From NCBI GenBank assembly GCA_964631865.1, contig CAZWAK010000007.1, positions 1,934-65,933 of the forward strand: 64,000 nt of DNA, read 5' to 3'. Position 1 is the first letter of the stretch. Each line of letters begins with the position of its first letter. The DNA is from an uncultured Heliobacteriaceae bacterium (GTDB lineage: Bacteria; Acidobacteriota; Blastocatellia; RBC074). The notes under the pieces were generated by a model. It saw only the letters and a list, made by a program, of their open reading frames with translations. It was not told where the DNA came from and searched no databases. Position numbers and translations under genes: made by a program. Shown in pieces: positions 1 through 52,920 of the stretch.

Positions 1-188
1 GCATTTTGGGGCCTGCGCCCGCACCGCTGGCCCGCATCAAAGGCGAGCATCGGTTGCAGGTGTTGATTAAGACGAAGAACCGCAGAGTCGCGCGCGAGGC
101 ATTGGATGCGGCGATGCTGGCGTTGAAGGAGCAAGCGTGGGATTTGCGGATGCTGAATGTCGAAGTTGATCCGGTGAGTTTGATGTAG
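1..188 (+). CDS. priA: Primosomal protein N' (PriA), C-terminal end; the gene starts upstream of the window
   Basis: The ORF tail ...[51 protein letters not shown] resembles a PriA C-terminus. It is in frame from position 1 and stops with TAG at 186-188. Confidence 0.55.
137..188 (+). repeat. Direct repeat copy 1: native 3' end of priA (att-like)
   Basis: gtgggatttgcggatgctgaatgtcgaagttgatccggtgagtttgatgtag recurs at 1441-1494 (about 1 mismatch over the 45-nt core) and at 2968-3024 (about 80% identical). Confidence 0.8.
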
Positions 189-269
189 CCTGTCCTTGAT
201 GCGATTATACAAAACTGCATTATGCAAAACTGCATTATGCGAATCTGTATAATTCAAGCAGGAGACAGT

Positions 270-1439
270 ATGAAAAACCCATTTCAATATGGCCGCGAAT
301 TAGGTGTGGATGAGTTGGTAGACCGTGAAACTGAAGTTGCCGAAGTAGTCAGCGCGATTCAGGAGGGCGGAAAACTTTTCCTCATTGGCCCGCGCCGTTA
401 CGGGAAGACTTCTATTTTGCAAGCCGCGCAAGCACAGGCTGAAAAAGCTGGAGCCATAGTGTTACGTTACGACGCCGAAGCGTGGCCGACTTTAGATTTG
501 TTAGTCCGCGCTGTTTTGGTCGAAGCCACCCAACGTCTTAGCACCAACCTCGATAAAGCGGGCGATAAGCTGCGCAAGTTTTTTTCCCGCCTGAAGCCTG
601 AAATCAATTTCAATCTCGCCGATCAAACCTTGAGCGGCAGTCTGGGTGTCAATGCGGACGACGCCAAAGAACCAATCGCACAAACCATGCTGCTGGTTGA
701 TTTGCTAAATGGTCTGGAAAAATTGGCCGCCGAAGCTGCGCGTCCGGTCGGACTGATGTTAGATGAATTCCAGAAAGTCATCATGCTCGGCGGCGAAGAA
801 GCAGAAGGGCAAATTCGCGCCGCAGTGCAACGGCATCGCCACGTCGGTTACGTTTTTGCTGGCTCGAAAACTCGCCTGCTGACCGATATGACAGGTCATC
901 CATCTCGTCCGTTTTATCGCCTGGGCGAGCGTCTTTTCATTGGCCCTGTGCCACGTGCGGATTTCACCGCCTTTCTGCTCGCAGGCTTTAAGCAAGGCAG
1001 CATCAAACCTACCGACGCGGGCATCGCTGCGATTCTCGATCTGGCCGAAGAGGTTCCTTACAATGTGCAACGGCTGGCGCATATTTGTTGGGATACGCTG
1101 CAAGTCGCACGCAGCAAAACGCTGGACGAAAACATCGTGCGGCAACAATTGGAATTGCTGGTCAGACGCGACGACACTTTTTACAGCCAGCTCTGGAATC
1201 AGCTTACAGCCGTGCAACAAAAAGCGATGATTGCTCTGCTGCGCGAAGGTGCTGTCCGCCTGCATTCGCAACAGGTCACACGCGCCTATAACCTGTCCCC
1301 TGCCAGCATGCAACGCGCGCTGAAATCGTTACAGGAACGCGACCTCGTGCGCGCGGAAGAAACGATGGGAACTGTGCGCCTGCGATTGGAAGACCCCTTT
1401 TTCGGAGCGTGGATTCGATTGGTGACAAGCAATTCTTGA
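270..1439 (+). CDS. AAA+ ATPase of the archaeal-ATPase (ATPase_2) type with a C-terminal DUF234-like winged-helix region; orphan
   Basis: Walker A GPRRYGKTS and a Walker B-like LMLDEF. GGAGA lies 6 nt upstream of the ATG at 270; the ORF-track start at 222 is probably too early. Confidence 0.7.
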   Translation: MKNPFQYGRELGVDELVDRETEVAEVVSAIQEGGKLFLIGPRRYGKTSILQAAQAQAEKAGAIVLRYDAEAWPTLDLLVRAVLVEATQRLSTNLDKAGDKLRKFFSRLKPEINFNLADQTLSGSLGVNADDAKEPIAQTMLLVDLLNGLEKLAAEAARPVGLMLDEFQKVIMLGGEEAEGQIRAAVQRHRHVGYVFAGSKTRLLTDMTGHPSRPFYRLGERLFIGPVPRADFTAFLLAGFKQGSIKPTDAGIAAILDLAEEVPYNVQRLAHICWDTLQVARSKTLDENIVRQQLELLVRRDDTFYSQLWNQLTAVQQKAMIALLREGAVRLHSQQVTRAYNLSPASMQRALKSLQERDLVRAEETMGTVRLRLEDPFFGAWIRLVTSNS

Positions 1440-1440
1440 G

Positions 1441-1494
1441 GTGTGGGGGTTGCGGATGCTGAATGTCGAAGTTGATCCTGTGAGTTTGATGTAG
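1441..1494 (+). repeat. Direct repeat copy 2 of the priA 3' terminus
   Basis: Near-identical to 137-188. It begins 2 nt after the ATPase stop and again ends in TAG. Confidence 0.8.
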
Positions 1495-1520
1495 GCTATA
1501 ATGCCGCCGAGGTAAAAGTT

Positions 1521-1850
1521 ATGAGCATCGTCGTTGAAGCCGAAGAATATTTGTCGTCATTGACGCGCGCCGAGAAAGCGCAGGTATTGCAATGGATCGT
1601 GCGCGATTTAGGCGATGCATTTCCCGGCATTGAAAGCACAGCAGGCGTTTGCGGTGGCGCAGCACGAATTGTCCGCACGCGCATTCCGGTTTGGACGTTG
1701 GAACAAGCACGACGATTGGGCACGAGCGAAGCTGATATTCTCAAAGCTTTTCCTACGTTGCGCGCGGAAGACCTGGCCAATGCGTGGGCGTATGTCCGTT
1801 CGCACAAACAAGAGATCGAACAGGAAATTCAGGAAAACGAAGAGGCTTGA
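1521..1850 (+). CDS. DUF433 domain protein (putative antitoxin-like HTH partner of a DUF5615/PIN-like protein)
   Basis: The motif ...ARIVRTRIPVWTLEQARRLGTSEADILKAFPTL... is typical of DUF433. It is followed 4 nt later by a DUF5615-like ORF. Confidence 0.65.
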   Translation: MSIVVEAEEYLSSLTRAEKAQVLQWIVRDLGDAFPGIESTAGVCGGAARIVRTRIPVWTLEQARRLGTSEADILKAFPTLRAEDLANAWAYVRSHKQEIEQEIQENEEA

Positions 1851-1853
1851 GCG

Positions 1854-2111
1854 ATGGCGCGTTTGTATTCGAATGAAAACTTCCCGTTGCTTATGGTGCA
1901 GGAATTACGACGTTTAGGCCATGACGTTTTGACCGTGCAGGAAGCGGGCAACGCCGACCGAGCCATTCCCGATGATGCGGTGTTAGCGTTTGCGATGGCT
2001 GAAGGCGTCTCCAAAAAGTGCAGACACTGTCTGCAAAATTCATTTGCGAGAACCGAAAAGACGCGGCACTTGCTCGAAACGCAACGCATCGTCAAAGGGA
2101 AAAGCCAATGA
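1854..2111 (+). CDS. DUF5615-like (PIN-like) protein, probably degraded or truncated after about residue 50
   Basis: N-terminus MARLYSNENFPLLMVQELRRLGHDVLTVQEAG...DDAVLAFAMAEG matches the DUF5615 pattern. The rest (VSKKCRHCLQNSF...) does not resemble the family. Confidence 0.45.
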   Translation: MARLYSNENFPLLMVQELRRLGHDVLTVQEAGNADRAIPDDAVLAFAMAEGVSKKCRHCLQNSFARTEKTRHLLETQRIVKGKSQ

Positions 2112-2162
2112 AGAGAAAGCGCATGTGCTACAATCCGGCGCGAATCGTTTGAGGGAACTTGT

Positions 2163-2532
2163 TATGACGACAATCACGTTGGAAGTACCGGATTCATTGG
2201 CGTCGCAGCTTACGCCGTTGCGTGATCGCTTGCCCAACATTTTGCAGCAAACGGTGGGCGCTTGGTCATTGCAGGTTGCGCCAAACCAACTCAGCAAATC
2301 GTTTCCGGTCTACGAAGCGATGATGGATTTTTTGGCGAGTGGGCCGACGCCGGAACAGATCATTGCGCACAAATCGTCACGGCCTTTACAGCGCCGCTTG
2401 GAAGCGTTGTTGGACAAACAGCGCGAAGACGGATTGACGGAAGAAGAAACGGCGGAGTTGAATGCGTTCGATCAGGTCAATGACGTGATGAGTTCGCTGA
2501 AGCTGCGAGCACGGTGCGCGCTTCGTTCATGA
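2163..2532 (+). CDS. Hypothetical protein (about 123 aa) immediately upstream of an HNH endonuclease
   Basis: Start trimmed to MTTITLEVPDSL... with ATG at 2163. No recognisable domain. It ends 10 nt before the HNH gene. Confidence 0.45.
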
Positions 2533-2541
2533 GCTACGACT

Positions 2542-2958
2542 ATGCCATCAGCCAATGTCCCCGCACGGCTTCGGCGACAAGTCATCGCCAGAGCCAATCA
2601 CGTTTGTGAATACTGCTTGCTACATCAGGACGATGCCGACTTTTTGCATCAGATAGATCACATCATCCCGCGCAAATACAACGGCCTGACTATCTTCATC
2701 ATCTTGGCGCTTGCTTGTCTGAAATGTAACAAAAACAAAGGCCCTGAAATTGCCGGACTTGATCCGATTGATAATGAAATCGCGCCCCTCTTCAATCCAC
2801 GCACGCAAAGTTGGGACGACCATTTCGAGTTGCTCGGCGCATTTATCCTCGGCAAAACCCGTATTGACCGTGCGACAGTCGCGGCATTGAAATTGAATGA
2901 TCCGATTCGCGTCAACCAGCGGCAGGAACTCATCGCCGAAGGCCAGTATCCACGCTAA
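2542..2958 (+). CDS. HNH endonuclease
   Basis: CEYCLL...H-x3-DHIIPRK...ALACLKCNKNKG match the HNH motif with its Cys pairs. Confidence 0.75.
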   Translation: MPSANVPARLRRQVIARANHVCEYCLLHQDDADFLHQIDHIIPRKYNGLTIFIILALACLKCNKNKGPEIAGLDPIDNEIAPLFNPRTQSWDDHFELLGAFILGKTRIDRATVAALKLNDPIRVNQRQELIAEGQYPR

Positions 2959-2967
2959 GACGAAAAT

Positions 2968-3024
2968 GGGTGTGGAATTTGCGGAAGCTGAATATCGAGT
3001 TGATCTCGTGAGCTTGACGTCAGC
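2968..3024 (+). repeat. Direct repeat copy 3 of the priA 3' terminus (diverged)
   Basis: gggtgtggaatttgcggaagctgaatatcgagttgatctcgtgagcttgacgtcag, about 80% identical to copy 1. It starts 10 nt after the HNH stop. Confidence 0.7.
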
Positions 3025-3114
3025 AATTGTGTTTAGAAAACGGCTGAAAATAACAACGAGTGACCAGCGCGCAGGCAAGTCACTCGTGGCAGCGGGGTGT
3101 GAGAGAAATCAAGG

Positions 3115-4338
3115 CTATTTCATGACGGCGCGGCGGCTCACTTCGACGACGCGGCTTTCGGCAAAGGTTGTGACCGGATAGCCGAGCGGCTCGACGTCTT
3201 GGACGTTGACTTCGCGCGCCATCAGCGGCAGCGGTTCGGCGGCGGTTTCAATGCCTGCCAGTTTGCCGAGCAACCATTCGTATTGATTCGTGATTTGCTC
3301 CCAATCGTAGCGGGCACGCACGCGGGACATGGCGCGGGCGCGATACTCGTGGATGAGCGCGGGGTGTGCCAGGACGCGGCGCATCTGGGCGGCTAAATCT
3401 TCGACCGAATCGTAGCTGATGCCAGCGTCGCCCATCACTTCCAAATTCTCCGGCGTGTTCAGCACCAGCGCGCAATTGCCTGCGCCCATCGCTTCGATCA
3501 ACGCGGGATGTGTGCCGCCGACTTCGGTCGCGTGAACGTAGCAATAGGCATTTTGCTGCAATGCGCGATAATCTTCGCCAAAGACGAAGCCGAGGAATTT
3601 GACGCGCGGGTCTTTCGTGCTTTTCAGTTGGGCGATGTACTCTTCCGCGTACGGTGCGCCGCCGACAATCACGAGCGGCAAATCGGTTTTGACTTGTTCA
3701 TAGGCTTCGATGACGAGGTGCGCGTTGTTTTCCGGCTCCAGACGGCTCACGTACAAAATGTAGCGATTGGCTTCCAACTCGAATTTTTGCAGGGTTTCCG
3801 GCGCGGCGCGGCGTTCGACATCAGCGCCGTAAGCGATCATCGAAGAATGTTTGCGATAGCGCGTGGCGTAGTAATCCTGTATGACCTGCGCATCGGTCAC
3901 AATCGCGGTGGGCAAAAACGTCGAAAGCCATTCCGACACGAAATAATACTGGCGTCCGAGCCAATTCCACTTTTTGCGTTTGCGCTCCAACCCGTCCACA
4001 TTCACGAGCGTCGGCGTGCCCAACAAACGCGGCAACACGGCGAAGATGCTGTTCGCTGCATTGCAGATCAAAATGACGTCGTAGCGGAAAAACAGCGCGT
4101 GCAGGACGGAGAGGAACGTATGAATGACGGTATCGAAATATTTGTGACGAATGGTGGGAAGAACGACCAGGTTGACACCTTGATGGGTGCGCGTGGAGCC
4201 GCTGGCGTAATGTTTGCGCCCGTACACGGTGACTGCGTGACCGCGTGTCACCAGTCGGGTGCTGAGTTGTTCAGCAAAGGTCTCAAACCCGCCGTAATTC
4301 GCCGGAATTCCGCGCGTCCCCAGAATGGCAATTTTCAT
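3115..4338 (-). CDS. Glycosyltransferase family 4 (DUF1972-type N-terminus)
   Basis: MKIAILGTRGIPANYGGFETFAEQL... and a C-terminal GT4 EX7E-like region (EVGGTHPALIEAMGAG). Confidence 0.8.
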   Translation of the reverse strand: MKIAILGTRGIPANYGGFETFAEQLSTRLVTRGHAVTVYGRKHYASGSTRTHQGVNLVVLPTIRHKYFDTVIHTFLSVLHALFFRYDVILICNAANSIFAVLPRLLGTPTLVNVDGLERKRKKWNWLGRQYYFVSEWLSTFLPTAIVTDAQVIQDYYATRYRKHSSMIAYGADVERRAAPETLQKFELEANRYILYVSRLEPENNAHLVIEAYEQVKTDLPLVIVGGAPYAEEYIAQLKSTKDPRVKFLGFVFGEDYRALQQNAYCYVHATEVGGTHPALIEAMGAGNCALVLNTPENLEVMGDAGISYDSVEDLAAQMRRVLAHPALIHEYRARAMSRVRARYDWEQITNQYEWLLGKLAGIETAAEPLPLMAREVNVQDVEPLGYPVTTFAESRVVEVSRRAVMK

Positions 4339-4523
4339 AAATTCAAACTAGAGAAAGTGAACCACAAAAAGCGAGGTAGCCCGTTTTAGAACGCAATCCG
4401 CACGGCTCTAATGGGGCTTGGGTTATCAAGGATGTCCAGGGGAGGCCATCAAGAAACTGGGTCTACTATAATAATGCTGCCTCGTTTTGTCACGCCGTAA
4501 TTTGCCTTTGGTTCAGAAAGTTT

Positions 4524-4769
4524 TTAGTCGGTTTTGGACGAAACAAAGCCCGGCGACTTCACTTTTTTCTCGCCGCGATCTTTGCTATCCCAGAGCGCCA
4601 CAATTTTTTCGATGCGGACGAAGAACGTCTGGTCATCTTTTTCCAATTGCAGAATATCGCCTTCAATTTGGATGACTTTGCCGCTCACTGTGCCCGCGCC
4701 AAAGCTCACGTCAATTTCTTTGCCAATACGATTTGCCAAAATTTCTTTCACTTGCTGCGACTCCTTCAC
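4524..4769 (-). CDS. Small hypothetical protein, possibly Sm/LSm-like
   Basis: 81-aa ORF with a beta-strand-like GKVIQIEGDILQLEKDDQTFFVRIEKIVAL. No firm family assignment. Confidence 0.4.
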   Translation of the reverse strand: MKESQQVKEILANRIGKEIDVSFGAGTVSGKVIQIEGDILQLEKDDQTFFVRIEKIVALWDSKDRGEKKVKSPGFVSSKTD

Positions 4770-4916: not shown

Positions 4917-5165
4917 ATGCTCGCAAAAGTTTATGTGACGCTCCGCAACGGCGTGCTCGACCCGCAAGGCAAAGCTATTCATCACGCCGCCACGACCATT
5001 GGTTATCAAGGCATCGCAGACATTCGCCAGGGCAAGTATTTTGCCATCACGTTTGACGATTCCGTAGACGAAGCGCAGGCGTACGAACAATTGGAAAAGC
5101 TCGCGCATGACGTGTTATCGAATCCGGTGATCGAGGATTACCAAATCGAATTGTTGGCCGATTAA
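4917..5165 (+). CDS. purS: Phosphoribosylformylglycinamidine synthase subunit PurS
   Basis: MLAKVYVTLRNGVLDPQGKAIHHA...YFAITFDD... is the PurS signature. Start chosen at the internal Met. Confidence 0.7.
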   Translation: MLAKVYVTLRNGVLDPQGKAIHHAATTIGYQGIADIRQGKYFAITFDDSVDEAQAYEQLEKLAHDVLSNPVIEDYQIELLAD

Positions 5166-5168
5166 GTT

Positions 5169-6608
5169 ATGCCTCTTCCTGCAAAAATCGCGGCGCAATT
5201 ACGTGCCATCTGTGGTGACGATGCGGTCTTGACGGACGCGGCGGACTTGCTCGTCTACGAATACGACGCCGTCACGACGCACCGCGCCCAACCGCTTGCC
5301 GTCGTCTTTCCGCAAACGACCGAACATGTCGCGGGCGTCGTGCGCGTGCTGATGGAGCACGGCATTCCGTACGGCCCGCGCGGCGCAGGCACGGGCTTGA
5401 GTTCGGGCGCAATTGCGCTCGGTTGTGAGGCTGGCGAAGGCGCGGTCATCATTGAAATGGCGCGGATGAATCGCATTCTGGAAATTGACTTCGCCAATCA
5501 ACGCGCGATTGTGCAACCGGGCGTCGTGAATTTGCGGCTCTCGCAAGCCATCGCGTCGCAAGGCTATCACTACGCGCCTGACCCGTCGTCGCAAGCTTCC
5601 TGCACGCTCGGCGGCAACGTCGCGGAAAACTCCGGCGGCCCGCATTGCCTGAAATACGGAATGACGACGAATCACATTCTCGGCCTCGAAGTTGTGTTGC
5701 CCAACGGCAACATCGTGCAATTCGGCGGCGACGCGGCGGACACGATTGGCTACGATTTGCTCGGCACGTTTATCGGCAGCGAAGGCACGCTCGGCATCGC
5801 CACAAAAATCATCGTCAAACTCAGCCGCAACCCGCAAACCGTCGTGACGTTGCTCGCGGATTTTATGGACGTCAACGATGCGAGCCGCGCCGTGTCGGCG
5901 ATCATTGCCGCAGGCTTGCTGCCGGCGGCGTTGGAGATGATTGACCAGCCCACGATTCTGGCGGTCGAATCGTCCATTTACAAAGCGGGTTATGCCACCG
6001 ATGTCGCGGCGTGTTTGATTGTCGAGTTAGACGGCCTGCGCGCAGGGATTGATGGGCAGGCGCAGCGTGCGAAAGATATATGCCTCGAACACGGTGCGCG
6101 CGCGGTGCGAGAAGCGCGCGATGAACTCGAACGCAAAAAACTGTGGGCCGGACGCAAAGGCGCGTTCGGCGCGCTCGGTCGCGTCAGCCCCGATTTGTTT
6201 GTGCAAGACGCGGTTGTGCCACGCACGAAATTGCCCGAAGTGCTGGCCGGGATTTACAAGGTCGCGGAACGGCGCGGCATCCGCTTGTGCAACGTTTTCC
6301 ACGCGGGCGATGGCAATTTGCATCCGACCATCAACTTTGACGGACGCAATGCCGACGAAGTCGAGCGCGTGCATCTCGCCGGCAAAGAAATCATGAAGCT
6401 ATGCGTGGAAGCGGGTGGCTCAATCACGGGCGAGCACGGCGTCGGCGTAGACAAGATTGGTTATATGCCGATGATCTTCGATCAAGCGTCGCTGGATGCG
6501 ATGTTGGCCGTCAAAGAAGTCTTCAATCCGACGGGACTATGCAATCCAGGCAAAGCCATTCCGGCGCAAAAGATGTGTCGGGAGTATCGGAAGGCGGTGC
6601 AGGGGTAG
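5169..6608 (+). CDS. FAD-binding oxidoreductase, glycolate oxidase GlcD / D-lactate dehydrogenase family
   Basis: 479 aa with an FAD-binding PCMH domain (GAGTGLSSGA) and the C-terminal ...GSITGEHGVG... signature. Confidence 0.8.
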   Translation: MPLPAKIAAQLRAICGDDAVLTDAADLLVYEYDAVTTHRAQPLAVVFPQTTEHVAGVVRVLMEHGIPYGPRGAGTGLSSGAIALGCEAGEGAVIIEMARMNRILEIDFANQRAIVQPGVVNLRLSQAIASQGYHYAPDPSSQASCTLGGNVAENSGGPHCLKYGMTTNHILGLEVVLPNGNIVQFGGDAADTIGYDLLGTFIGSEGTLGIATKIIVKLSRNPQTVVTLLADFMDVNDASRAVSAIIAAGLLPAALEMIDQPTILAVESSIYKAGYATDVAACLIVELDGLRAGIDGQAQRAKDICLEHGARAVREARDELERKKLWAGRKGAFGALGRVSPDLFVQDAVVPRTKLPEVLAGIYKVAERRGIRLCNVFHAGDGNLHPTINFDGRNADEVERVHLAGKEIMKLCVEAGGSITGEHGVGVDKIGYMPMIFDQASLDAMLAVKEVFNPTGLCNPGKAIPAQKMCREYRKAVQG

Positions 6609-6650: not shown

Positions 6651-6962
6651 TCAGGCACGACTTAGGGCAGCAAGTTTTTCTCGCAGGGGAGAGACATTGT
6701 TTTTTCGGAAGGCTTCGGCAAAGGCATGGTCGGTCTCGATGCTTTGATCTATTTCTTGACGGTGATCGTAGTAATAGGCCATCGCCGCATAAACAGCCGA
6801 CAAGGGGAGGTCATACTTCACAGCAATTTCTTCCAATGACTGCCCCAATCGGAAATGCATTAACACGACATCCGCCACCGTGATACGAGAATTGGCAAGG
6901 CGTGGCTTGTTGCCTCGCATCTCAGCATCAATTTCAATATGCGCATCTAAAACGACTTCCAT
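6651..6962 (-). CDS. DUF433 domain protein (second copy, no DUF5615 partner)
   Basis: ...RITVADVVLMHFRLGQSLEEIAVKYDLPLSAVYAAMAYYYDH... Start taken at MEVVLD. Confidence 0.6.
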   Translation of the reverse strand: MEVVLDAHIEIDAEMRGNKPRLANSRITVADVVLMHFRLGQSLEEIAVKYDLPLSAVYAAMAYYYDHRQEIDQSIETDHAFAEAFRKNNVSPLREKLAALSRA

Positions 6963-11569: not shown

Positions 11570-11913
11570 AACTTTGTTCTTGAGCGGCTCTTGTGCAACC
11601 AAGCGCCGCGGTAATTGCCCTTGCGGGGCAAGAGGTTGTTCTTCCAAGGGGGATTGCGCAGTGTGGGTACTTCACACTGTATGCGTTTTAGAAACCAAGC
11701 CGAAGGGGTACCGCGACCGTCGCAGAGACAAGCCGAATCAGCTTAGGGGGCATTGTTCGTTCTGTTGCAGATAATGAATACCGCTAGGATGTCATCGCCG
11801 ACTTGCGCTTGATTATCAGTAATTCTGCCGACGATGTTTTGGGATTATTGGTGATGCGAGAGTCAGCACGCTACTCTCGTGTGAAGTTCTGTTGTTACCG
11901 CCAGGGAGATTTG

Positions 11914-12519
<606 letters not shown>

Positions 12520-12552
12520 ACAGCAAAAAACTTTTCGGTAGCAGTGCGGAAC

Positions 12553-14994
12553 CTAACTGCTCAACACGCTGCCCGGTTGATTGGTGAGGCTGGGCGTTTG
12601 CCACAACGCCGCATCCAAATCCTCCGCCGTCACAACGGGTTCGGGCAAACGCTCCAACGCCAGTTGCAATACCTCGTCCATCGTCTCGACCGCGTTGAGT
12701 TGAAACGCTTCCAGAATGTCGGCTGGAATTTCGACCAAATCTTTTTCGTTGTCTTTCGGAATGATAATGGTCGTGATGCCGGCGCGATGCGCGGCCAGCA
12801 GTTTTTCTTTCAAGCCGCCAATCGGCAGCACTTTGCCGCGCAACGTGATTTCGCCCGTCATCGCGACGTGTTTGTGAATGGCGATGCGTGTCAGCACCGA
12901 AGCCAGCGCCGTCGCAATCGTGATGCCCGCCGACGGCCCATCTTTGGGGATCGCGCCTTCGGGAACATGCACGTGCAAATCGTAGTTTTTGTGAAAGTCG
13001 TTCGGAATGCCCAATTCCATTGAGCGCGAACGCAAATACGTGACCGCCGCTTGCGCCGATTCCTGCATCACATCGCCCAGCTTGCCGGTCAGCGTCAACT
13101 TGCCTGTGCCCGGCAGCAACGTAGCTTCGATTTGCAAGACATCGCCACCGAATTCCGTGTAGGCCAAGCCGTTGACCAGGCCGACTTCGCTGTGTTCCGC
13201 GATGGTTTGCGGGCGGAATTTGATCGGGCCGAGTAAATTTTTGACGGCGGTCTCATCCACCGTGAATTTGAAGGCTTCATCTTGTTGCGCCACAAATTGC
13301 CGCGCCACTTTGCGGCAAAGCGAACCGATTTCGCGTTCGAGGTTGCGCACGCCAGCCTCTCGCGTGTACGAGTTGATAACGGTGCGCGTTCCTTCTTCGT
13401 CGAATTCGATCTGCCCGCCTTTCAGCCCGTTGCCTTCCTGTTGTTTGGGAATCAAATGCCGTCGCGCGATTTCGAGTTTTTCGCGTTCGGTGTAACCCGC
13501 GAGCCGAATGATTTCCAAACGATCCTGCAACGGAATCGGGATCGTGTGCAAGACGTTCGCTGTCGCAATGAACATCACTTGCGACAGGTCATATTCGACA
13601 TCCAGGTAATGATCGTGGAAGGTGTTGTTCTGTTCCGGGTCGAGCACTTCGAGCAAGGCCGAGGCCGGATCGCCGCGATGATCGTGCGCCAGCTTGTCCA
13701 CTTCGTCCAATAAAATCACCGGGTTGATCGTCTTCGCCTTTTTCATCATCTGCACGATTTGCCCCGGCAACGCGCCGATGTACGTGCGCCGATGCCCGCG
13801 AATTTCGGCTTCATCGCGCACACCGCCGAGCGCCAGTCGCACGAAGTGGCGGCCTGTGGCTTTGGCAATCGAACGACCGAGCGACGTTTTGCCGACGCCC
13901 GGCGGGCCGACAAAACACAGAATCGTGCCGCGCGGTTTTTCAACCAATTGCCGCACCGCGAGATATTCCAAAATGCGTTCTTTGATTTTGTCGAGACCGT
14001 AATGATCGTTTTCCAGCACGTCCTGCGCGTGCTTCAAGTCCCGAATCTCGTCGCTCTTTTGCAGCCAGGGCACGCCGAGCAGCCAGTCAATGTAGTTGCG
14101 CGAAACAGTGGATTCCGCTGCCATCGGCGGCATTTGTTCGAGCTTCTGTAACTCAATCACCGCTTTTTCTTTCGCCTCAGCAGTCATCCCGGCTTCTTCG
14201 ATTTTGATGAGCAATTCCTCGAATTCGGCCTTCTCGTCTTTGCGACCCAACTCTTTGTGAATGGCTTTGATCTTTTCGTTGAGGTAATACTCGCGCTGCG
14301 ATTTTTCCATCTGCCGTTTGACGCGCGTTTGAATCGTGCGGTCGAGATTGAGCTTTTCGATTTCGATTTCGATGAGGTCTACCATCTTCAGCAGCCGTTC
14401 CGACACCGAATACGTTTCGAGCAAGCTCTGCTTGTCTTCCACCGGCAGCTTCATCACATGCGCCAGCAAATCCACCATTTGACCGGGATCGCCCACACGC
14501 AGCGCCGACAACAGCAATTCCGGGTTCGGCTCCTGCGCCAGTTTGAGATACTGATCCATTTGCGCGTTGACGCGCGAGACCAAATTCAGGGTGCGCCGAT
14601 TGTTTTCGGGCAGCACCGGCACGCGCCGTACAATCGCCTGCAAATAACCATCTTTTTCCACGACCCGGATCGCCCGTGCGCGTTCGCGTCCTTCGACCAT
14701 CACCTTGATGGTCGGCTCTTCAGGCTTGCGCAACGAATTAGAGATGTAGGCAATCGTGCCCACGTCGTAGATATGCCCTGTGCCAGGGTCTTCCATCGTG
14801 GCGTCGTGCTGCGTGGCCAGAAAGATCAAGCGATGCGTGGCCAGCGCCTCTTCTAACGCCCGCACCGACGAATCGCGCCCGATATTGAAGGCGGCTTTGG
14901 AAAACGGAAAGACCACCACATCACGAATCGGCACCATCGGATAGCTGACAATGTCATCGGGGGCAGCATCGGTAAATTCTCGAAAATCTTGCAT
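12553..14994 (-). CDS. lon: ATP-dependent protease Lon
   Basis: Lon N-domain, AAA+ GPPGVGKTS, and the protease domain with the catalytic Ser in ...DGPSAGIT.... Start taken at MQDFREF. Confidence 0.9.
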
Positions 14995-22076: not shown

Positions 22077-22442
22077 TGGTGGAGGTGGTCGGAATCGAAC
22101 CGACGTCTAGCAGCCATTCACGAAAGAATCTACATACTTAGCCGCTTCGATTATGTTTTCACTCCCGCGCGGTAGTGCGAAGCGGCGAAGAACCGCGCGC
22201 GAGCTATGCCAGAGAAGTCTCGCTCTCCAACTCTGACCTGCGTCAGAAAGCCAGCCGATACAAGTGACGCTCGGAGCCACGCCTATCGGCGAAACGTGGG
22301 CGAACGGGCTGTGAACTAGAGTTAACTAGGCAGCCATTGCGAGTTCTTGATTCGCAATTATGTTTTGCTTGCAGAGTACGGGTTACAAGCATCCCGGTAT
22401 GCATCCGTCGCTGCAGGTCTCCTATCGAAACCAATGCACCCC
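22077..22442 (-). ncRNA. ssrA: tmRNA (SsrA)
   Basis: The minus strand reads 5' GGGGGTGCATTGGTTTCGATAGG... and ends ...GTCGGTTCGATTCCGACCACCTCCACCA, giving a tRNA-like acceptor, T-arm and CCA. An internal ORF ...GCG AAT CAA GAA CTC GCA ATG GCT GCC TAG TTAA suggests a tag ending ANQELAMAA. Confidence 0.75.
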
Positions 22443-22541
22443 CACATTCAAAGAGCGTTTCTATTGTCAGGGAAACGCGGACGGTTTAGAGTCTACGGTT
22501 CGTAAAGATGTGTGTCAAGCACCTGATTTTTCGAGGATTTC

Positions 22542-24035: not shown

Positions 24036-24123
24036 AAAAAATCCGCGCCGCTCCGTTTCATCCGCATCATTCGTAGTCTATTATTGCCGTTCAATTTGAA
24101 TTTCAGACAAAGGCCAAAAACGA

Positions 24124-25521
24124 ATGACTACGCAACCCGATTGGGCAATCCCGAATTATCTCGAAGTCAAAAACAACCACCTGCACATCAATGACGTAGA
24201 TGTGACGACGCTCGCCGCGCAATACGACACGCCGCTGTTTGTGATTTCTGCGCCGCGCATTCGCGCCAATATCGCGCGCCTGCTCGAAGCGAAAAAGCAT
24301 CATCCGAAACTCAAACTTTGCTATGCCTCGAAAGCGAACAATGCGCTCGGCGTCTTGCGCGTCGTGCGGGATGCCGGGATTGATGTCGAAGTGAATTCCG
24401 GCGGCGAATTGTTTCGGGCCTTGCGCGCGGGCTTTCGGCCAGAGCAAATCGAAATGAACGGCATTGCCAAAACCGAACAGGAAATCGCCGAAGCCATCGA
24501 AGCGGGCATTTACGCGATCAATCTGGATTCGCCGTTTGAACTGGAATTGGTCGAACAGGTTGCGGCGAAACTCAACAAGCGCGCCAACGTCACGGTGCGT
24601 TTGGTGGCAGGCGTCGGTACACGCTCGCACGCCGGATTGCAGACGGCGCTCTACACCTCGAAATTCGGCATCTCGCCGTCGCAAGCCCGCGAAGTGATGC
24701 TGCGTGCGCTGCGCAATCCTGATCACCTCAACCTCGCAGGCATTCACATTCACGTCGGCTCGCAAACACCTGACCCCGAACCGTACGCCACAGCGTTTGC
24801 GACCATGTGGGAACATTTGTTGTGGCTGCACAAAGAAACCGGACACGAGTTGCAACACATCAACATCGGCGGCGGCATTCCGGTGAATTATTTGCGTGAC
24901 CGCGCGCACGCCGAAGAAATCAGCGCCAACGAACGCACGATGCTCGGCGCGATTTTGACGTCCGACGAAGCGATTGGCGCGGCGCTCGAAGCCGTACGCA
25001 AAGCCGCACGCATCGCAGGCGCAGACCATTTGCTCAACGATTTGGAAATCGTGATGGAACCGGGACGCGCCGTCATCGGCGATGCGGTCACGATTTTGAC
25101 CACCGTGCGCAACCTCAAAACGCGCCCGGAGACACATGAAAACTGGGTACTGACGGACGCGGGGTATAACCTGATGCTTTCGATGGTGATGTACCACTGG
25201 TATTACCACGCTGTGAACGCCTCGCGCGCAGGCGAAGCCCATTCGTCGCGCTATCGGATGGCGGGGCCGTTGTGCGATGGCGGCGATGTCTATTTCGATT
25301 TGCACGGCGAAGGGCATTTGCCGGATTGCCGGTTGTTGCCGGTGAATGCACAGGTCGGCGAAGTCATCGCGATGCTGAACACAGGCGCGTACACGATGTC
25401 GCAAATGACGGCGTACAACGGACGCCCCTTTCCGGCGGCGGTGCTGGTGGAGGACGACGGTCAAGTCGAAGTCATTCGCAAACGCGACAGCTACGAAGAT
25501 TTGTTGCTGAACGAAATTTGA
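24124..25521 (+). CDS. PLP-dependent decarboxylase, Orn/DAP/Arg decarboxylase family 2 (diaminopimelate decarboxylase-like)
   Basis: ...YASKAN... and ...EPGRAVIG...CDGGD... signatures of the family. Confidence 0.75.
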   Translation: MTTQPDWAIPNYLEVKNNHLHINDVDVTTLAAQYDTPLFVISAPRIRANIARLLEAKKHHPKLKLCYASKANNALGVLRVVRDAGIDVEVNSGGELFRALRAGFRPEQIEMNGIAKTEQEIAEAIEAGIYAINLDSPFELELVEQVAAKLNKRANVTVRLVAGVGTRSHAGLQTALYTSKFGISPSQAREVMLRALRNPDHLNLAGIHIHVGSQTPDPEPYATAFATMWEHLLWLHKETGHELQHINIGGGIPVNYLRDRAHAEEISANERTMLGAILTSDEAIGAALEAVRKAARIAGADHLLNDLEIVMEPGRAVIGDAVTILTTVRNLKTRPETHENWVLTDAGYNLMLSMVMYHWYYHAVNASRAGEAHSSRYRMAGPLCDGGDVYFDLHGEGHLPDCRLLPVNAQVGEVIAMLNTGAYTMSQMTAYNGRPFPAAVLVEDDGQVEVIRKRDSYEDLLLNEI

Positions 25522-25559
25522 TTCACGAGTACCGTTCGCCTCAGCGAGCGCTGGCAGGA

Positions 25560-26372
25560 TCATTTGCGCCGCTTCTCGGTTCGGACTGGATTACGTGTGA
25601 GTAAGACACGATAGCGATAGAGGTCGCTGCGATAGAGAACCCGGACGTATTCGACGGGTTTTTCTTCGGCGCTATAAATCGTATTCTCGATGGACAACAA
25701 GGCCGAGCCGACCGGGATTTCCAGGCGTCCGGCCACATACGGATCGGCCAGCGCCGCCGTGATTTGTTGGATGCCTTTGTACAGGCGGAGGCCGATTTTG
25801 GTTTCCAATTGTTCCAGCACCGACCCCTGACTCAAGTCCTCTGCCGTCAGCCGCACCCCAATTTCGGCGGGGAAATAATTGACCAATAATCCGTACGGCT
25901 TGTCATCGAGCAAGCGCAAGCGTTCGACGCGCGAAACCGGATCGCCGAGTTGCAAGCCCAGCAACTTGGCGGCTTGGGCATCGGCTTTGATGAGGTTGAT
26001 GTCGAGCACTTTCACGGGCGTCTTTTGCCCCATCGCAATCAACTCATCCAGCGACCCCGTCAAGTTAATCACCCCTTCAAAGCGTCCCTCCACCAGGTTA
26101 GTGCGCGCGCGGCGTTCGGCAATAAACGTGCCGCGTCCCTGCCGTCGCTCAATTAACCCTTCGCCTGCCAGCGTGGCCAGAGCTTGCCGCACGGTGATGC
26201 GGCTGACGCCGTATTCGGCGATCAAATCGTCTTCGGTGGGCAACTGATCGCCCTGCGCATAGACGCCAGAGTTGATCTTTTCGCGCAAGAGGATTTCCAA
26301 TTGATAATAAAGCGGCACGCGCTTGGAAACGAACTGAGCGGGTGGTTTGGTCATAGAGATTTTTCGTGCCAT
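25560..26372 (-). CDS. GntR family (HutC subfamily, UTRA domain) transcriptional regulator
   Basis: An N-terminal wHTH ...LPTEDDLIAEYGVSRITVRQAL... and a UTRA-like C-terminal domain. Confidence 0.8.
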   Translation of the reverse strand: MARKISMTKPPAQFVSKRVPLYYQLEILLREKINSGVYAQGDQLPTEDDLIAEYGVSRITVRQALATLAGEGLIERRQGRGTFIAERRARTNLVEGRFEGVINLTGSLDELIAMGQKTPVKVLDINLIKADAQAAKLLGLQLGDPVSRVERLRLLDDKPYGLLVNYFPAEIGVRLTAEDLSQGSVLEQLETKIGLRLYKGIQQITAALADPYVAGRLEIPVGSALLSIENTIYSAEEKPVEYVRVLYRSDLYRYRVLLTRNPVRTEKRRK

Positions 26373-50858: not shown

Positions 50859-51746
50859 ATGGAATTCCGACAACTCCGAACTCTGCTGGCCATTGCGGAA
50901 ACGCGCAACTTCACGCGCGCGGCGGAGCGTGTGCATTTGACGCAGGCTGCCGTGAGCGCGCAGATCAAAACGCTTGAAGCCGAAACCGGCGTGCCGTTGT
51001 TTGCGCGCGTGAACAAAAAAGTTTTTCTGACCGAGGCGGGCGAATTGCTGGTGCGACGCGCCGAGCGTTTGCTCAAAGCGCACGACGAAGCTTTGCTTGC
51101 GCTCAAGGAATTGGGCGATGCCGAACGAGGCCGCCTGCGCATCGGCACGGCTTCGACGATGGCCAGCAATGAGCAATTGCCAACGATTCTCGCGGAACTC
51201 AAACGCGCGTATCCGAAAGCACAAGTCACCGTGCGCCGCGCGACGAGTGCGGAAATCGTCGCGCAGATTTTGCAAAACGATTTGGATGTCGGCTTGGTTT
51301 CGCTGCCCGTCGAGGCCAACGACATTCGCGCTGAGGTGTTGCAACGAGATCGTCTAGTTGCTATCGTGCAACCTGCTCATCCCCTCGCGCATCAACGCAG
51401 CATAAGCCCCCTACAACTCGCTGCCGAGCCGCTGATTCTCGGTGAACAGGGCGGCAACACCCGACGGTTAATTGATTTGTTTTTTGAGAAATCTGGTGTG
51501 CGGCCCCAAGTGGTCATGGAATTGGGCAGCAACACTTCGATCAAACGCATGGTCGAGCACGGCCTGGGCGTGAGCCTGCTGCCGCGTTCGTCGGTGCGCG
51601 AGGAGATGAAGGCTGGTAAACTAATTGCGTTGCCGGTGCGTGGCTTTAAGGATAATTGGGAATTGGGGCTGGTCACGCTCAAAGGCGATCACGTGCCGCC
51701 CCTGCAACGAGCCTTCAAGCAGCTTTGCAAACAATATTTCGACTGA
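50859..51746 (+). CDS. LysR family transcriptional regulator
   Basis: N-terminal HTH ...LRTLLAIAETRNFTRAAERVHLTQAAVSAQIKTLE... and a substrate-binding domain. Confidence 0.85.
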   Translation: MEFRQLRTLLAIAETRNFTRAAERVHLTQAAVSAQIKTLEAETGVPLFARVNKKVFLTEAGELLVRRAERLLKAHDEALLALKELGDAERGRLRIGTASTMASNEQLPTILAELKRAYPKAQVTVRRATSAEIVAQILQNDLDVGLVSLPVEANDIRAEVLQRDRLVAIVQPAHPLAHQRSISPLQLAAEPLILGEQGGNTRRLIDLFFEKSGVRPQVVMELGSNTSIKRMVEHGLGVSLLPRSSVREEMKAGKLIALPVRGFKDNWELGLVTLKGDHVPPLQRAFKQLCKQYFD

Positions 51747-51759
51747 GGAAACTTTGAGG

Positions 51760-52920
51760 ATGAAACAAACACGACAAACCTGGTTCAGCGTCATCATCAG
51801 TGCCACACTCATCATCAACTTATTCGCCTTTTCTGCGTTCGCACAACAACGACGACCACGTCGTACCAGCGACGTAGAATTCAGCCCGCTCGCAGCAGGC
51901 ACACGGGTCTTGCCCAGAGGCTACGTGATCGTCCTGCGCCTGGACACGCGCTTGGATTCCAGCCGTGTGCGTCCGAGTGATCGCTTTTACGCGCGCCTTG
52001 ACGAACCCATCACGGACGAAGCGGGCAGCATGATCTTGCCCGCGAATTTATTGGTGATGGGCCACGTCAGGGAGGCCACGCCCGCACAGATGGGGCGGCG
52101 TTCCGGCCTCATCGAAATCGAGTTCGACCGCCTGGCCATGCCTGACGGACGCGAGCTGCCGGTCAAAGGCATTTTGACCAGCGCCGATCCGGCAGAACGC
52201 AAAAAACTCAAAATTGATGAAGAAGGCGTGCTGGAAGGCGGCGGACAAGTGAAGCGCAACACCGTGTTTGTGGGCGGCGGCGCGGCGACAGGGGCGGTGA
52301 TCGGCGCGATTGCGGGAGGCGCGGCGTTGGGCGCGGCAGTCGGCGCAGCGGCAGGTGTGGTCGCGGTGTTGTTGGCCAAAGGCAAAGAAGCGATTGTCGA
52401 GCCAGGCACATTGATTGGCCTCGAATTGACGGAGTCGTTGGACTTGACGCAACGCGGCACGATTCCGCCACCACGACCGACAACACCAGCGCCAACGACA
52501 CCAACCACGACGCCTTCGCCTTCAACGCCCGCGCCGAATCCCAGTCAACCTCCTGCGACAACGCCGGACACAAACGGTTCGCAGCAGCCTGTTCCGCTAC
52601 CGACGCCGCCTCAGGAACCGCAACTGGTGAAAGTCAGTTTTGTGCAAGTCGAGCGTGTGTCGGGGAATTCGATTTTGGTGGTTGCCACAGCCGAAACAAC
52701 CTCTGGCGGCTGGCGCGTCAAGGCGGAGCATCAAGTTAATCAAGACACGCTGGAAGTATGGGTCAAAGGCACGCCGCCGGAAGGTCGCGCGTCCAAAGCC
52801 ATCTCGCATCCGACGGTCACCACAACGGTGGCAGACCCCAGTCGTGCCATTCGCCGCGTCGTGGTTCACGGTCTGGGCGGCGACCGCACCGTCGCCGTGC
52901 CGCAACAAATTCGCCGGTAA
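51760..52920 (+). CDS. Secreted protein with a glycine-zipper segment and a Pro/Thr-rich linker
   Basis: Signal peptide, GGGAATGAVIGAIAGGAALGAAVGAAAGVVAV, and PPPRPTTPAPTTPTTTPSPSTPAP. Start trimmed to MKQT. Confidence 0.5.
   Translation: MKQTRQTWFSVIISATLIINLFAFSAFAQQRRPRRTSDVEFSPLAAGTRVLPRGYVIVLRLDTRLDSSRVRPSDRFYARLDEPITDEAGSMILPANLLVMGHVREATPAQMGRRSGLIEIEFDRLAMPDGRELPVKGILTSADPAERKKLKIDEEGVLEGGGQVKRNTVFVGGGAATGAVIGAIAGGAALGAAVGAAAGVVAVLLAKGKEAIVEPGTLIGLELTESLDLTQRGTIPPPRPTTPAPTTPTTTPSPSTPAPNPSQPPATTPDTNGSQQPVPLPTPPQEPQLVKVSFVQVERVSGNSILVVATAETTSGGWRVKAEHQVNQDTLEVWVKGTPPEGRASKAISHPTVTTTVADPSRAIRRVVVHGLGGDRTVAVPQQIRR

Follow-up and report, generated by a model that had tools for sequence, protein, structure and literature searches.

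The described systems closest to the locus treated here are islands bounded by remnants of a target gene. The tandem islands at ssrA in Dehalococcoides are bounded by repeats of the 3' end of that gene, some of them carry no integration genes, and they have been discussed as possible cis-mobilizable elements (CIMEs; PMC3146451). The ICESt1/CIME systems comprise cis-mobilizable elements formed by accretion (reviewed in PMC5704250), and the tycheposon islands of Prochlorococcus contain remnant partial-tRNA repeats (bioRxiv 10.1101/2020.12.28.424599). Here we analysed a 64-kb stretch of DNA (the window) from an uncultured soil bacterium of the Blastocatellia (Acidobacteriota), in which the 3' terminus of priA is present in three direct copies that delimit two intervals of accessory and defence-like genes. 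Our tentative reading is that two successive insertions of the Campbell type (by single crossover) left the three termini as scars in a hotspot for accessory and defence genes. This reading starts from what can be seen directly, namely the repeats, the order of their decay, the compact boundaries of the units, the hotspot itself, the mosaic composition of the second copy and the imported gene ends found at two analogous loci.

The window opens inside priA and holds its last 60 codons (1-188, plus strand; open reading frame (ORF) 6-188; PF18074 PriA_C, E = 3e-10), which in a public contig of identical sequence (L001) extend upstream into 616 aa of PriA. A preliminary description of this DNA had reported three direct copies of the priA terminus, each right after a stop codon and the more diverged the further it lies from priA, and our analysis bears out all of these points (133-188, 1439-1494 and 2968-3023, all on the plus strand). 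Copy 1 (133/137-188(191)) is the functional terminus and includes the TAG stop codon at 186-188, copy 2 (1439/1443-1494(1497)) is a displaced end that now lies outside priA, and copy 3 is the most decayed of the displaced ends, with a 1-nt deletion and its stop codon gone. Copies 1 and 2 are 93% identical over 55 nt and have in common an exact 29-nt core, TTGCGGATGCTGAATGTCGAAGTTGATCC (144-172 and 1450-1478), for which 100 shuffles gave 0 matches; the repeat is also given as GGYGTGGRATTTGCGGATGCTGAATGTCGAAGTTGATCC. Copy 3 is ~78-80% identical to the priA end. Divergence from copy 1 thus rises from ~7-9% in copy 2 to ~22% in copy 3, a graded decay with the oldest copy furthest from priA, and a profile of the priA terminus run over ~1.3 Mb recovered copy 2 with E = 1.6e-14 and copy 3 with E = 3.9e-8. 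Copy 2 starts inside the stop codon of an ATPase gene (TGA, 1437-1439) and copy 3 starts ~10 nt past that of an HNH nuclease gene (TAA, 2956-2958). The left edges of these two copies agree to 1-2 nt, and the right end of every copy is the position of the priA stop, which is also the point where homology among related genomes breaks off. Three contigs that were assembled independently, from other sequencing runs (L001-L003), have the same arrangement, and a ~96-97% identical strain from a separate study (L090) has the priA-ATPase-copy 2 junctions of the window, so the repeat structure is not an assembly artefact.

The differences between copies 1 and 2 are unevenly placed, since the 11 leftmost of 56 nt hold four of the five (binomial P ~0.006, post hoc). 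At this left edge copies 2 and 3 read GGTGTGG, and priA alleles read GCGTGG or GGGTGG. Taken at face value, the placement of the differences suggests that copy 2 is a hybrid site in which an older or foreign left edge is joined to a young right part. Such a mosaic fits a crossover inside the repeat, the product (attR) combining the left part of the incoming sequence with the right part of the resident one.

The younger insertion has a single gene as its cargo, an orphan AAA_16/ATPase_2 ATPase with a MarR-like winged-helix C-terminus (270-1439, plus strand; Pfam). Upstream of it, and part of the same unit, are operator-like direct repeats ATTATRCAAAACTGC and a TATAAT (204-248, plus strand; repeat search). 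Homology to ATPase genes at unrelated loci extends from 16 nt past the priA stop to the ATPase stop codon, and that to L085 begins at window position 204. We found 1519 ATPase homologues, the nearest of which outside the lineage (77-65% identity) are at non-priA loci. Direct repeats of ATTATGCAnnnCTGC, in 2-4 units and in either orientation, are always located just upstream of the orphan ATPase at unrelated loci (window 204-248, L084 375-411, L085 ~762-830), and are probably an autoregulatory operator. Among priA flanks, the ATPase unit occurs only in the window lineage and is absent from those of all the relatives, which fits a recent gain. In this regard, divergence at four-fold sites from L004, the closest species, is ~20-25%, about half of which would have accrued in each lineage; since copy 2 has diverged by 7-9%, it is probably younger than the split from L004.

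The two tandem cassettes of the preliminary description fared differently: the ATPase unit is indeed self-contained, whereas the second interval is a composite of resident modules, consisting of DUF433/DUF5615, DUF1016 remnants and a small-protein/HNH pair. Its first gene, antitoxin-like DUF433 (1521-1850, plus strand; Pfam E = 9e-17), is 96% identical to the L004 copy. Pfam agrees with the genes as originally assigned, except that the supposed DUF5615 gene (1854-2111, plus strand) is a chimeric ORF made of the first ~50 codons of DUF5615 (Pfam covers only profile positions 2-48 of 110) and of YhcG/DUF1016 remnants, namely a mid-gene palindrome, TGCAGACACTGTCTGCA, at 2019-2035 and the DUF1016 3' end (last ~60 nt) at 2051-2111; it matches both the DUF1016 3' end of L004 and a downstream remnant in L004. 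We read DUF433/DUF5615 as a toxin-antitoxin-like pair, of which the toxin-like partner, truncated after ~50 codons, is probably dead. They are followed by a 122-aa protein without a Pfam or PADLOC family (2164-2532, plus strand), the constant partner of the HNH gene, and by a small PtuB-like HNH nuclease (2542-2958, plus strand; Pfam HNH, PADLOC PtuB E = 1e-11), a pair that is conserved at many loci. With a PtuB-like nuclease and toxin-antitoxin-like genes, the cargo is accessory or defence-like, as had been proposed. In the Asn region of the HNH domain the window protein reads FIILALAC versus SENLALAC in relatives (e.g. L009), and it may be inactive. A Septu system (PtuA ATPase with PtuB HNH) was rejected, as the HNH gene is constantly paired with one for a protein of 122-144 aa that has no ATPase domain, and the nearby ATPase is a separate later insertion with no PtuA match. 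The units between the repeat copies have no mutual homology.

The modules of the second interval also adjoin priA in L004, L005, L009, L010, L011, L027 and L088, with L024 as a possible further case. L009 and L011 have them in an order (priA, small protein, HNH, DUF433, DUF5615) other than that of the window, and the identities of the modules to the relatives' copies roughly track priA. Because they lie beside priA in relatives and diverge along with it, these modules are long-term, rearranged residents and not one recent arrival. In L088 the small-protein promoter lies directly against the priA stop, and in L005 a relic of it does. In L004, homology to the DUF433 unit starts with TGATGTAG; these 8 nt, with which a TAG-ending priA terminus closes, are fused in L004 to the stop codon of a DUF1016 gene inserted there. 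Mid-gene pieces of the ancestral DUF1016 copy from which the L004 remnant derives are still present in the window, and this remnant is 92% identical to that of the window over 39 nt and 85% identical to the intact L004 gene over 53 nt. Being closer to the window remnant, this apparent DUF1016 duplicate of L004 was downgraded from an insertion scar to a probable deletion remnant.

The flank of priA was compared by means of a priA-based scan with one genome per species, which gave 80 loci, ~36 of them from Blastocatellia/Acidobacteriota, with PriA identities from 96% to ~50%. From the first base after the priA stop, the sequence is different in every relative. The genes found there include an OLD-family/AriA-like ATPase (L079), SIR2 (L005), HipA (L031), an RHS-like lipoprotein with YhcG/DUF1016 (L004) and pentapeptide membrane proteins (L009, L011, L088); in L006 an IS4 transposase lies at +2.5 kb behind priA. 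Because the relatives carry differing accessory and defence genes at this position, the priA 3' flank is a hotspot for such genes in the clade. Sliding-window identity of priA to L004, L005 and L006 had no clear break near the 3' end that would indicate a recombination tract. A search with blastn-short detected no second priA terminus in the ~36 related loci, and a profile combined with a per-locus Smith-Waterman search (shuffled controls) confirmed the window and added one independent case, L028. Extra copies among these loci are thus limited to L090, of the same lineage, and L028 (24 nt, at another boundary). Further candidates were discarded: those in L022, L029 and L044 are chance matches inside other genes, the L017 repeat represents two paralogous phosphosugar mutase genes, and the L043 repeat is a non-coding repeat at a doubtful ORF.

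Some of these flanks have features of their own. In L005, a SIR2-like gene (11824-13720; PADLOC Aga_SIR2, E = 5e-39) lies between the small-protein promoter relic and a 5'-truncated DUF433, and it appears to have replaced the small-protein/HNH pair. In L009, a like promoter sequence, ACGTTCAGCA...TATGCTAAAATG, precedes both the small-protein gene (5657-5693) and DUF433 (6797-6833), and a ~140-nt palindromic element (CGTAGGCGTCTCGCCTGC ... GCAGGCGAGACACCTACG) is located directly past the priA stop (5507-5648).

Analogous scars were found elsewhere. In L028, a more distant member of the Blastocatellia, priA has a new 24-nt end, followed by 36 nt, the old end and then downstream sequence that is conserved in sister genomes, and all five changed codons are silent. 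In L094, a Pyrinomonadaceae locus reached through HNH homologues, the real end of a convergent aminotransferase gene is followed by 2.6 kb of cargo and then by a ~73-nt displaced gene end. This cargo begins with a decayed, frameshifted module, on the same strand as the aminotransferase gene, and continues with small protein-HNH and then DUF433-DUF5615; the copies differ by a 2-nt deletion and, as we read the alignment, the change is silent in five of the seven codons affected. The bias towards silent sites in L028 and L094 indicates that the copies diverged while both were coding, and hence that the inserted DNA brought its own allele, which excludes a staggered-cut target-site duplication in these two cases. 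In addition, in L067 (Chitinophagales) a 203-nt direct repeat (2601-2803 and 4518-4720; 92%), composed of the last 47 nt of priA and 156 nt of downstream sequence with the terminator hairpin included, flanks a 1.7-kb insert with a gene for a 526-aa secreted protein on the opposite strand. With the window excluded, scars amount to 1-2 in ~70 priA ends versus 1 in ~1,400 other ORFs of 1.28 Mb, numbers too small for a conclusion. Duplications are not a general mark of small-protein/HNH insertions, as L091, L093, L095 and L099 have none. In L093 the pair (5597-6423) interrupts a molybdopterin oxidoreductase operon without any duplication; it is on the strand opposite to the operon, and ~6 nt separate its stop from that of the upstream operon gene. 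L094 also has a second duplication, comprising the small-protein promoter and first 13 codons (3995-4085 and 4945-5036; 55 nt, 94.5% in the core); the second duplicate is 3' of HNH and directly before DUF433, forming a nested repeat-cargo-repeat inside the aminotransferase insertion.

In the mechanism that we tentatively favour, each event would have consisted of a small circular or circularised DNA, carrying a short surrogate priA terminus and cargo, recombining with the chromosomal priA end inside the ~55-nt segment. priA would be kept whole (copy 1) and its former terminus would be moved downstream as a non-coding pseudo-end. The older event would have left copy 3 beside the terminator of the convergent gene for a GT4-family glycosyltransferase (3115-4338, minus strand; Pfam), which forms the right-hand boundary of the inserted region; this terminator is a hairpin followed by a U-rich tail (3056-3087, minus strand; fold z = -2.7). 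The younger event would then have brought the ATPase gene together with its own operator and left copy 2. The intermediate would presumably be circular, and the cassettes would no longer be mobile. The crossover could be due to a trans-acting recombinase, as with cis-mobilizable elements, or to RecA working on ~55 nt of homology. We favour Campbell-type insertion, in essence the att-site idea of the preliminary description, as the simplest explanation of a repeat-cargo-repeat-cargo-repeat array and because of the common left edge of the displaced copies, the hybrid nature of the younger scar and the imported gene ends at other loci; the tandem islands and the partial-tRNA remnants cited at the outset are published precedents.

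Several results weigh against this interpretation. The empty site anticipated in the preliminary description, with priA followed directly by the GT4 gene, does not occur in any of the 36 related loci, and in none of them is GT4 within 10 kb of priA. Relatives with other cargo behind priA have no scars within up to 10 kb, so most turnover in the hotspot leaves none. A recombinase or integrase was detected neither in the cassettes nor in any of the window ORFs that were checked (17 by Pfam and ~30 more judged by eye from their N-terminal sequence), as had been noted before for the integrase; 14 of the 17 match unrelated families, and those without a match are the 122-aa protein and the two long ORFs at 24103-25563 and 51625-52920. 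Likewise, scans for core copies outside priA ends, whether free, attP-like or marking other cassettes, turned up none: a metagenome scan gave two matches, both of them true priA ends, and two viral scans gave 0, the patterns in all these scans being exact ones by which diverged copies could be missed. Regarding the hybrid site, copy 2 of L090 reads GGGTGAG, without the T of GGTGTGG, which reduces the shared GGTGTGG state to weak evidence, and the test for clustering at the left edge was picked after the data were seen. Furthermore, the differences between the window copies are not biased towards silent sites and thus do not demonstrate an imported allele there. Lastly, the older unit may not be an arrival at all, its genes being long-standing neighbours of priA in the clade.

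The main rival, which we regard as somewhat unlikely, is one-sided homologous recombination with DNA of a related strain (homology-facilitated illegitimate recombination), in which the left crossover would fall in priA and the right end would be joined illegitimately upstream of the resident stop, so that the terminus is duplicated. A repeat that ends at the stop codon, where the homology of relatives also ends, is what this process would leave, and it would need neither the recombinase nor the attP-like copy that were missing from the ORFs checked and from the metagenome and viral scans. The varying length of the duplicates (55 nt in the window, 24 nt in L028, 203 nt in L067 and the 8-nt relic TGATGTAG in L004) is also in line with it, and the silent-site differences of L028 and L094 fit a diverged donor. 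However, two independent joints within 1-2 nt of each other would be a coincidence of a few percent, the cargo stops 0-13 nt past a stop codon at both joints with no random donor flank, and this process would not lead one to expect the mosaic at the left edge of copy 2. Homology-facilitated illegitimate recombination normally replaces or deletes DNA, and it is not known to regenerate the same ~55-nt duplicate twice.

An origin without any import is less probable than one-sided recombination, and we consider it improbable. Local segmental duplications including the priA end would have been followed by differential deletion, the copies being deletion remnants. This would agree with the best reading of the L004 DUF1016 duplicate, with the gene order of the older unit, a circular permutation of that in L009 and L011, and with the lack of an allelic signature in the window copies. 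Against it, several precise deletions ending at stop codons would be required, and the intervals that separate the copies are not homologous to one another. Nor does any relative have the ATPase gene behind priA, its kin being located at unrelated loci, and L028 and L094 carry imported alleles.

A homing process is very unlikely. Here the small HNH nuclease would act as a free-standing homing endonuclease that cuts the priA terminus and copies itself and its neighbours, while recoded ends would protect the carriers. The four small-protein/HNH insertions without duplication speak against this, as does the fact that homing creates no duplications, and the family scores as a PtuB-like defence nuclease, the window copy is without the conserved Asn region and the ATPase insertion contains no nuclease. 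What speaks for it is the position of the pair, which abuts the priA stop in L088, L009, L027 and L005 (in the last as a promoter relic only) and elsewhere stands between housekeeping genes as a compact insert of two genes, in one case within an operon; the recoded ends of L028 and L094 would fit as well. Finally, it is highly improbable that selection keeps several copies of the repeat for a function as promoter, terminator or small RNA, for although copy 2 is directly upstream of the TATAAT before DUF433, the repeat has no Rfam match, no consensus promoter call and no stable fold (copies 1 and 2 on both strands no better than shuffles, z +0.4 to +0.9), copy 3 has decayed with an indel and the relatives are without extra copies.

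A dedicated, currently active, priA-specific cassette system is not supported, because of the lack of a recombinase among the ORFs checked, of attP-like copies in the metagenome and viral scans, of scars in relatives with other cargo and of an empty site. What stands of the successive att-type integrations first proposed for the priA 3' end is that the copies are genuine insertion scars; a system targeting priA specifically finds no support. Comparable scars at other genes (L094) point in the same direction, and a literature search returned nothing relevant on priA as an integration site. The proposed likeness to an integron system was not upheld either: the absence of folding in the repeat excludes an attC-like site, priA is the neighbour on the left, and neither intI nor any other tyrosine recombinase was found among the ORFs checked. 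A transposon target-site duplication was rejected, given that no inverted termini were found and no transposase is present, and that the L028 and L094 copies are different alleles. A diversity-generating retroelement was discarded as well, because no reverse transcriptase was found among the ORFs checked and the mismatches between the repeat copies (A>G, C>T, T>G, G>T) are not adenine-specific. Additionally, an island linked to a tRNA or to transfer-messenger RNA (tmRNA) was ruled out, the sole such gene being the tmRNA gene at 22077-22443, which is unrelated to the priA locus. This gene (minus strand, tag ANQELAMAA) has a 3' end without signs of an island.

Another feature of the window touches the history of the region. 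Its gene for a glcD-like flavin adenine dinucleotide (FAD) oxidase (5169-6608) has its counterpart in L012 (11894-13321) directly 3' of priA and inverted, which implies that synteny of the priA region has been broken by more than cassette gain.

Some regularities are left unexplained, namely the unit boundaries at stop codons, the recurrent size of 55-75 nt and the occurrence of the same module families at different target genes. They could reflect a novel way of moving units in the Blastocatellia/Pyrinomonadaceae, in which minicircles with a ~55-75-nt surrogate host-gene 3' end would cross over inside that gene end, at several target genes (priA, aminotransferase), without an element-encoded recombinase, and would deliver single toxin-antitoxin or defence units with stop-codon boundaries; this is a doubtful proposition, marginally more so than the purely local origin considered above. 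The regularities do not yet amount to a new system, and they merit a systematic survey.

Many defence and toxin-antitoxin hotspots have no mobile-element genes, and how DNA enters them has mostly been deduced indirectly; at the priA locus the entry events left legible scars. Together, the imported ends of L028 and L094 and the crossover-like younger scar of the window provide a testable, integrase-free model of gene gain next to an essential gene, namely by single crossover in a short stretch of a gene end. Its value is limited in that the data show no system at work and even close relatives rarely have the pattern.

Compared with known systems, the locus resembles the ssrA islands and CIMEs in that repeats of a target terminus bound tandem units, some without integration genes, with accessory cargo. 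It differs from them in its target, priA, in units of 1.3-1.5 kb that leave no room for arm sites, in that no cognate recombinase or integrase-bearing sibling was found in the searches, and in an older unit made of long-resident neighbours of priA. As in the tycheposon islands, successive integrations at one site would push older elements inward, and partial copies of the target are scattered in the hotspot; tycheposons, however, have tyrosine recombinases and tRNA targets, neither of which applies to the priA locus. The compact single-gene units, each followed by a ~55-nt repeat and arranged in tandem beside a fixed site, recall integron cassettes, in which toxin-antitoxin-type cargo is common; unlike integrons, the repeat is the end of a host gene without an attC-like hairpin, no intI was found and the units have their own promoters or operators. 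In core-gene-flanked defence hotspots, and in homology-facilitated illegitimate recombination, a core gene forms the left anchor, the content is variable right from the base that follows the stop and mobile-element genes are lacking, and the window is like such hotspots in having priA as its left anchor, variable content past the stop and no mobile-element genes. Overall, the feature is a small, modest variant of known gene-end insertion scars, set in a hotspot for defence and toxin-antitoxin genes and with no sign of a dedicated mobile system.

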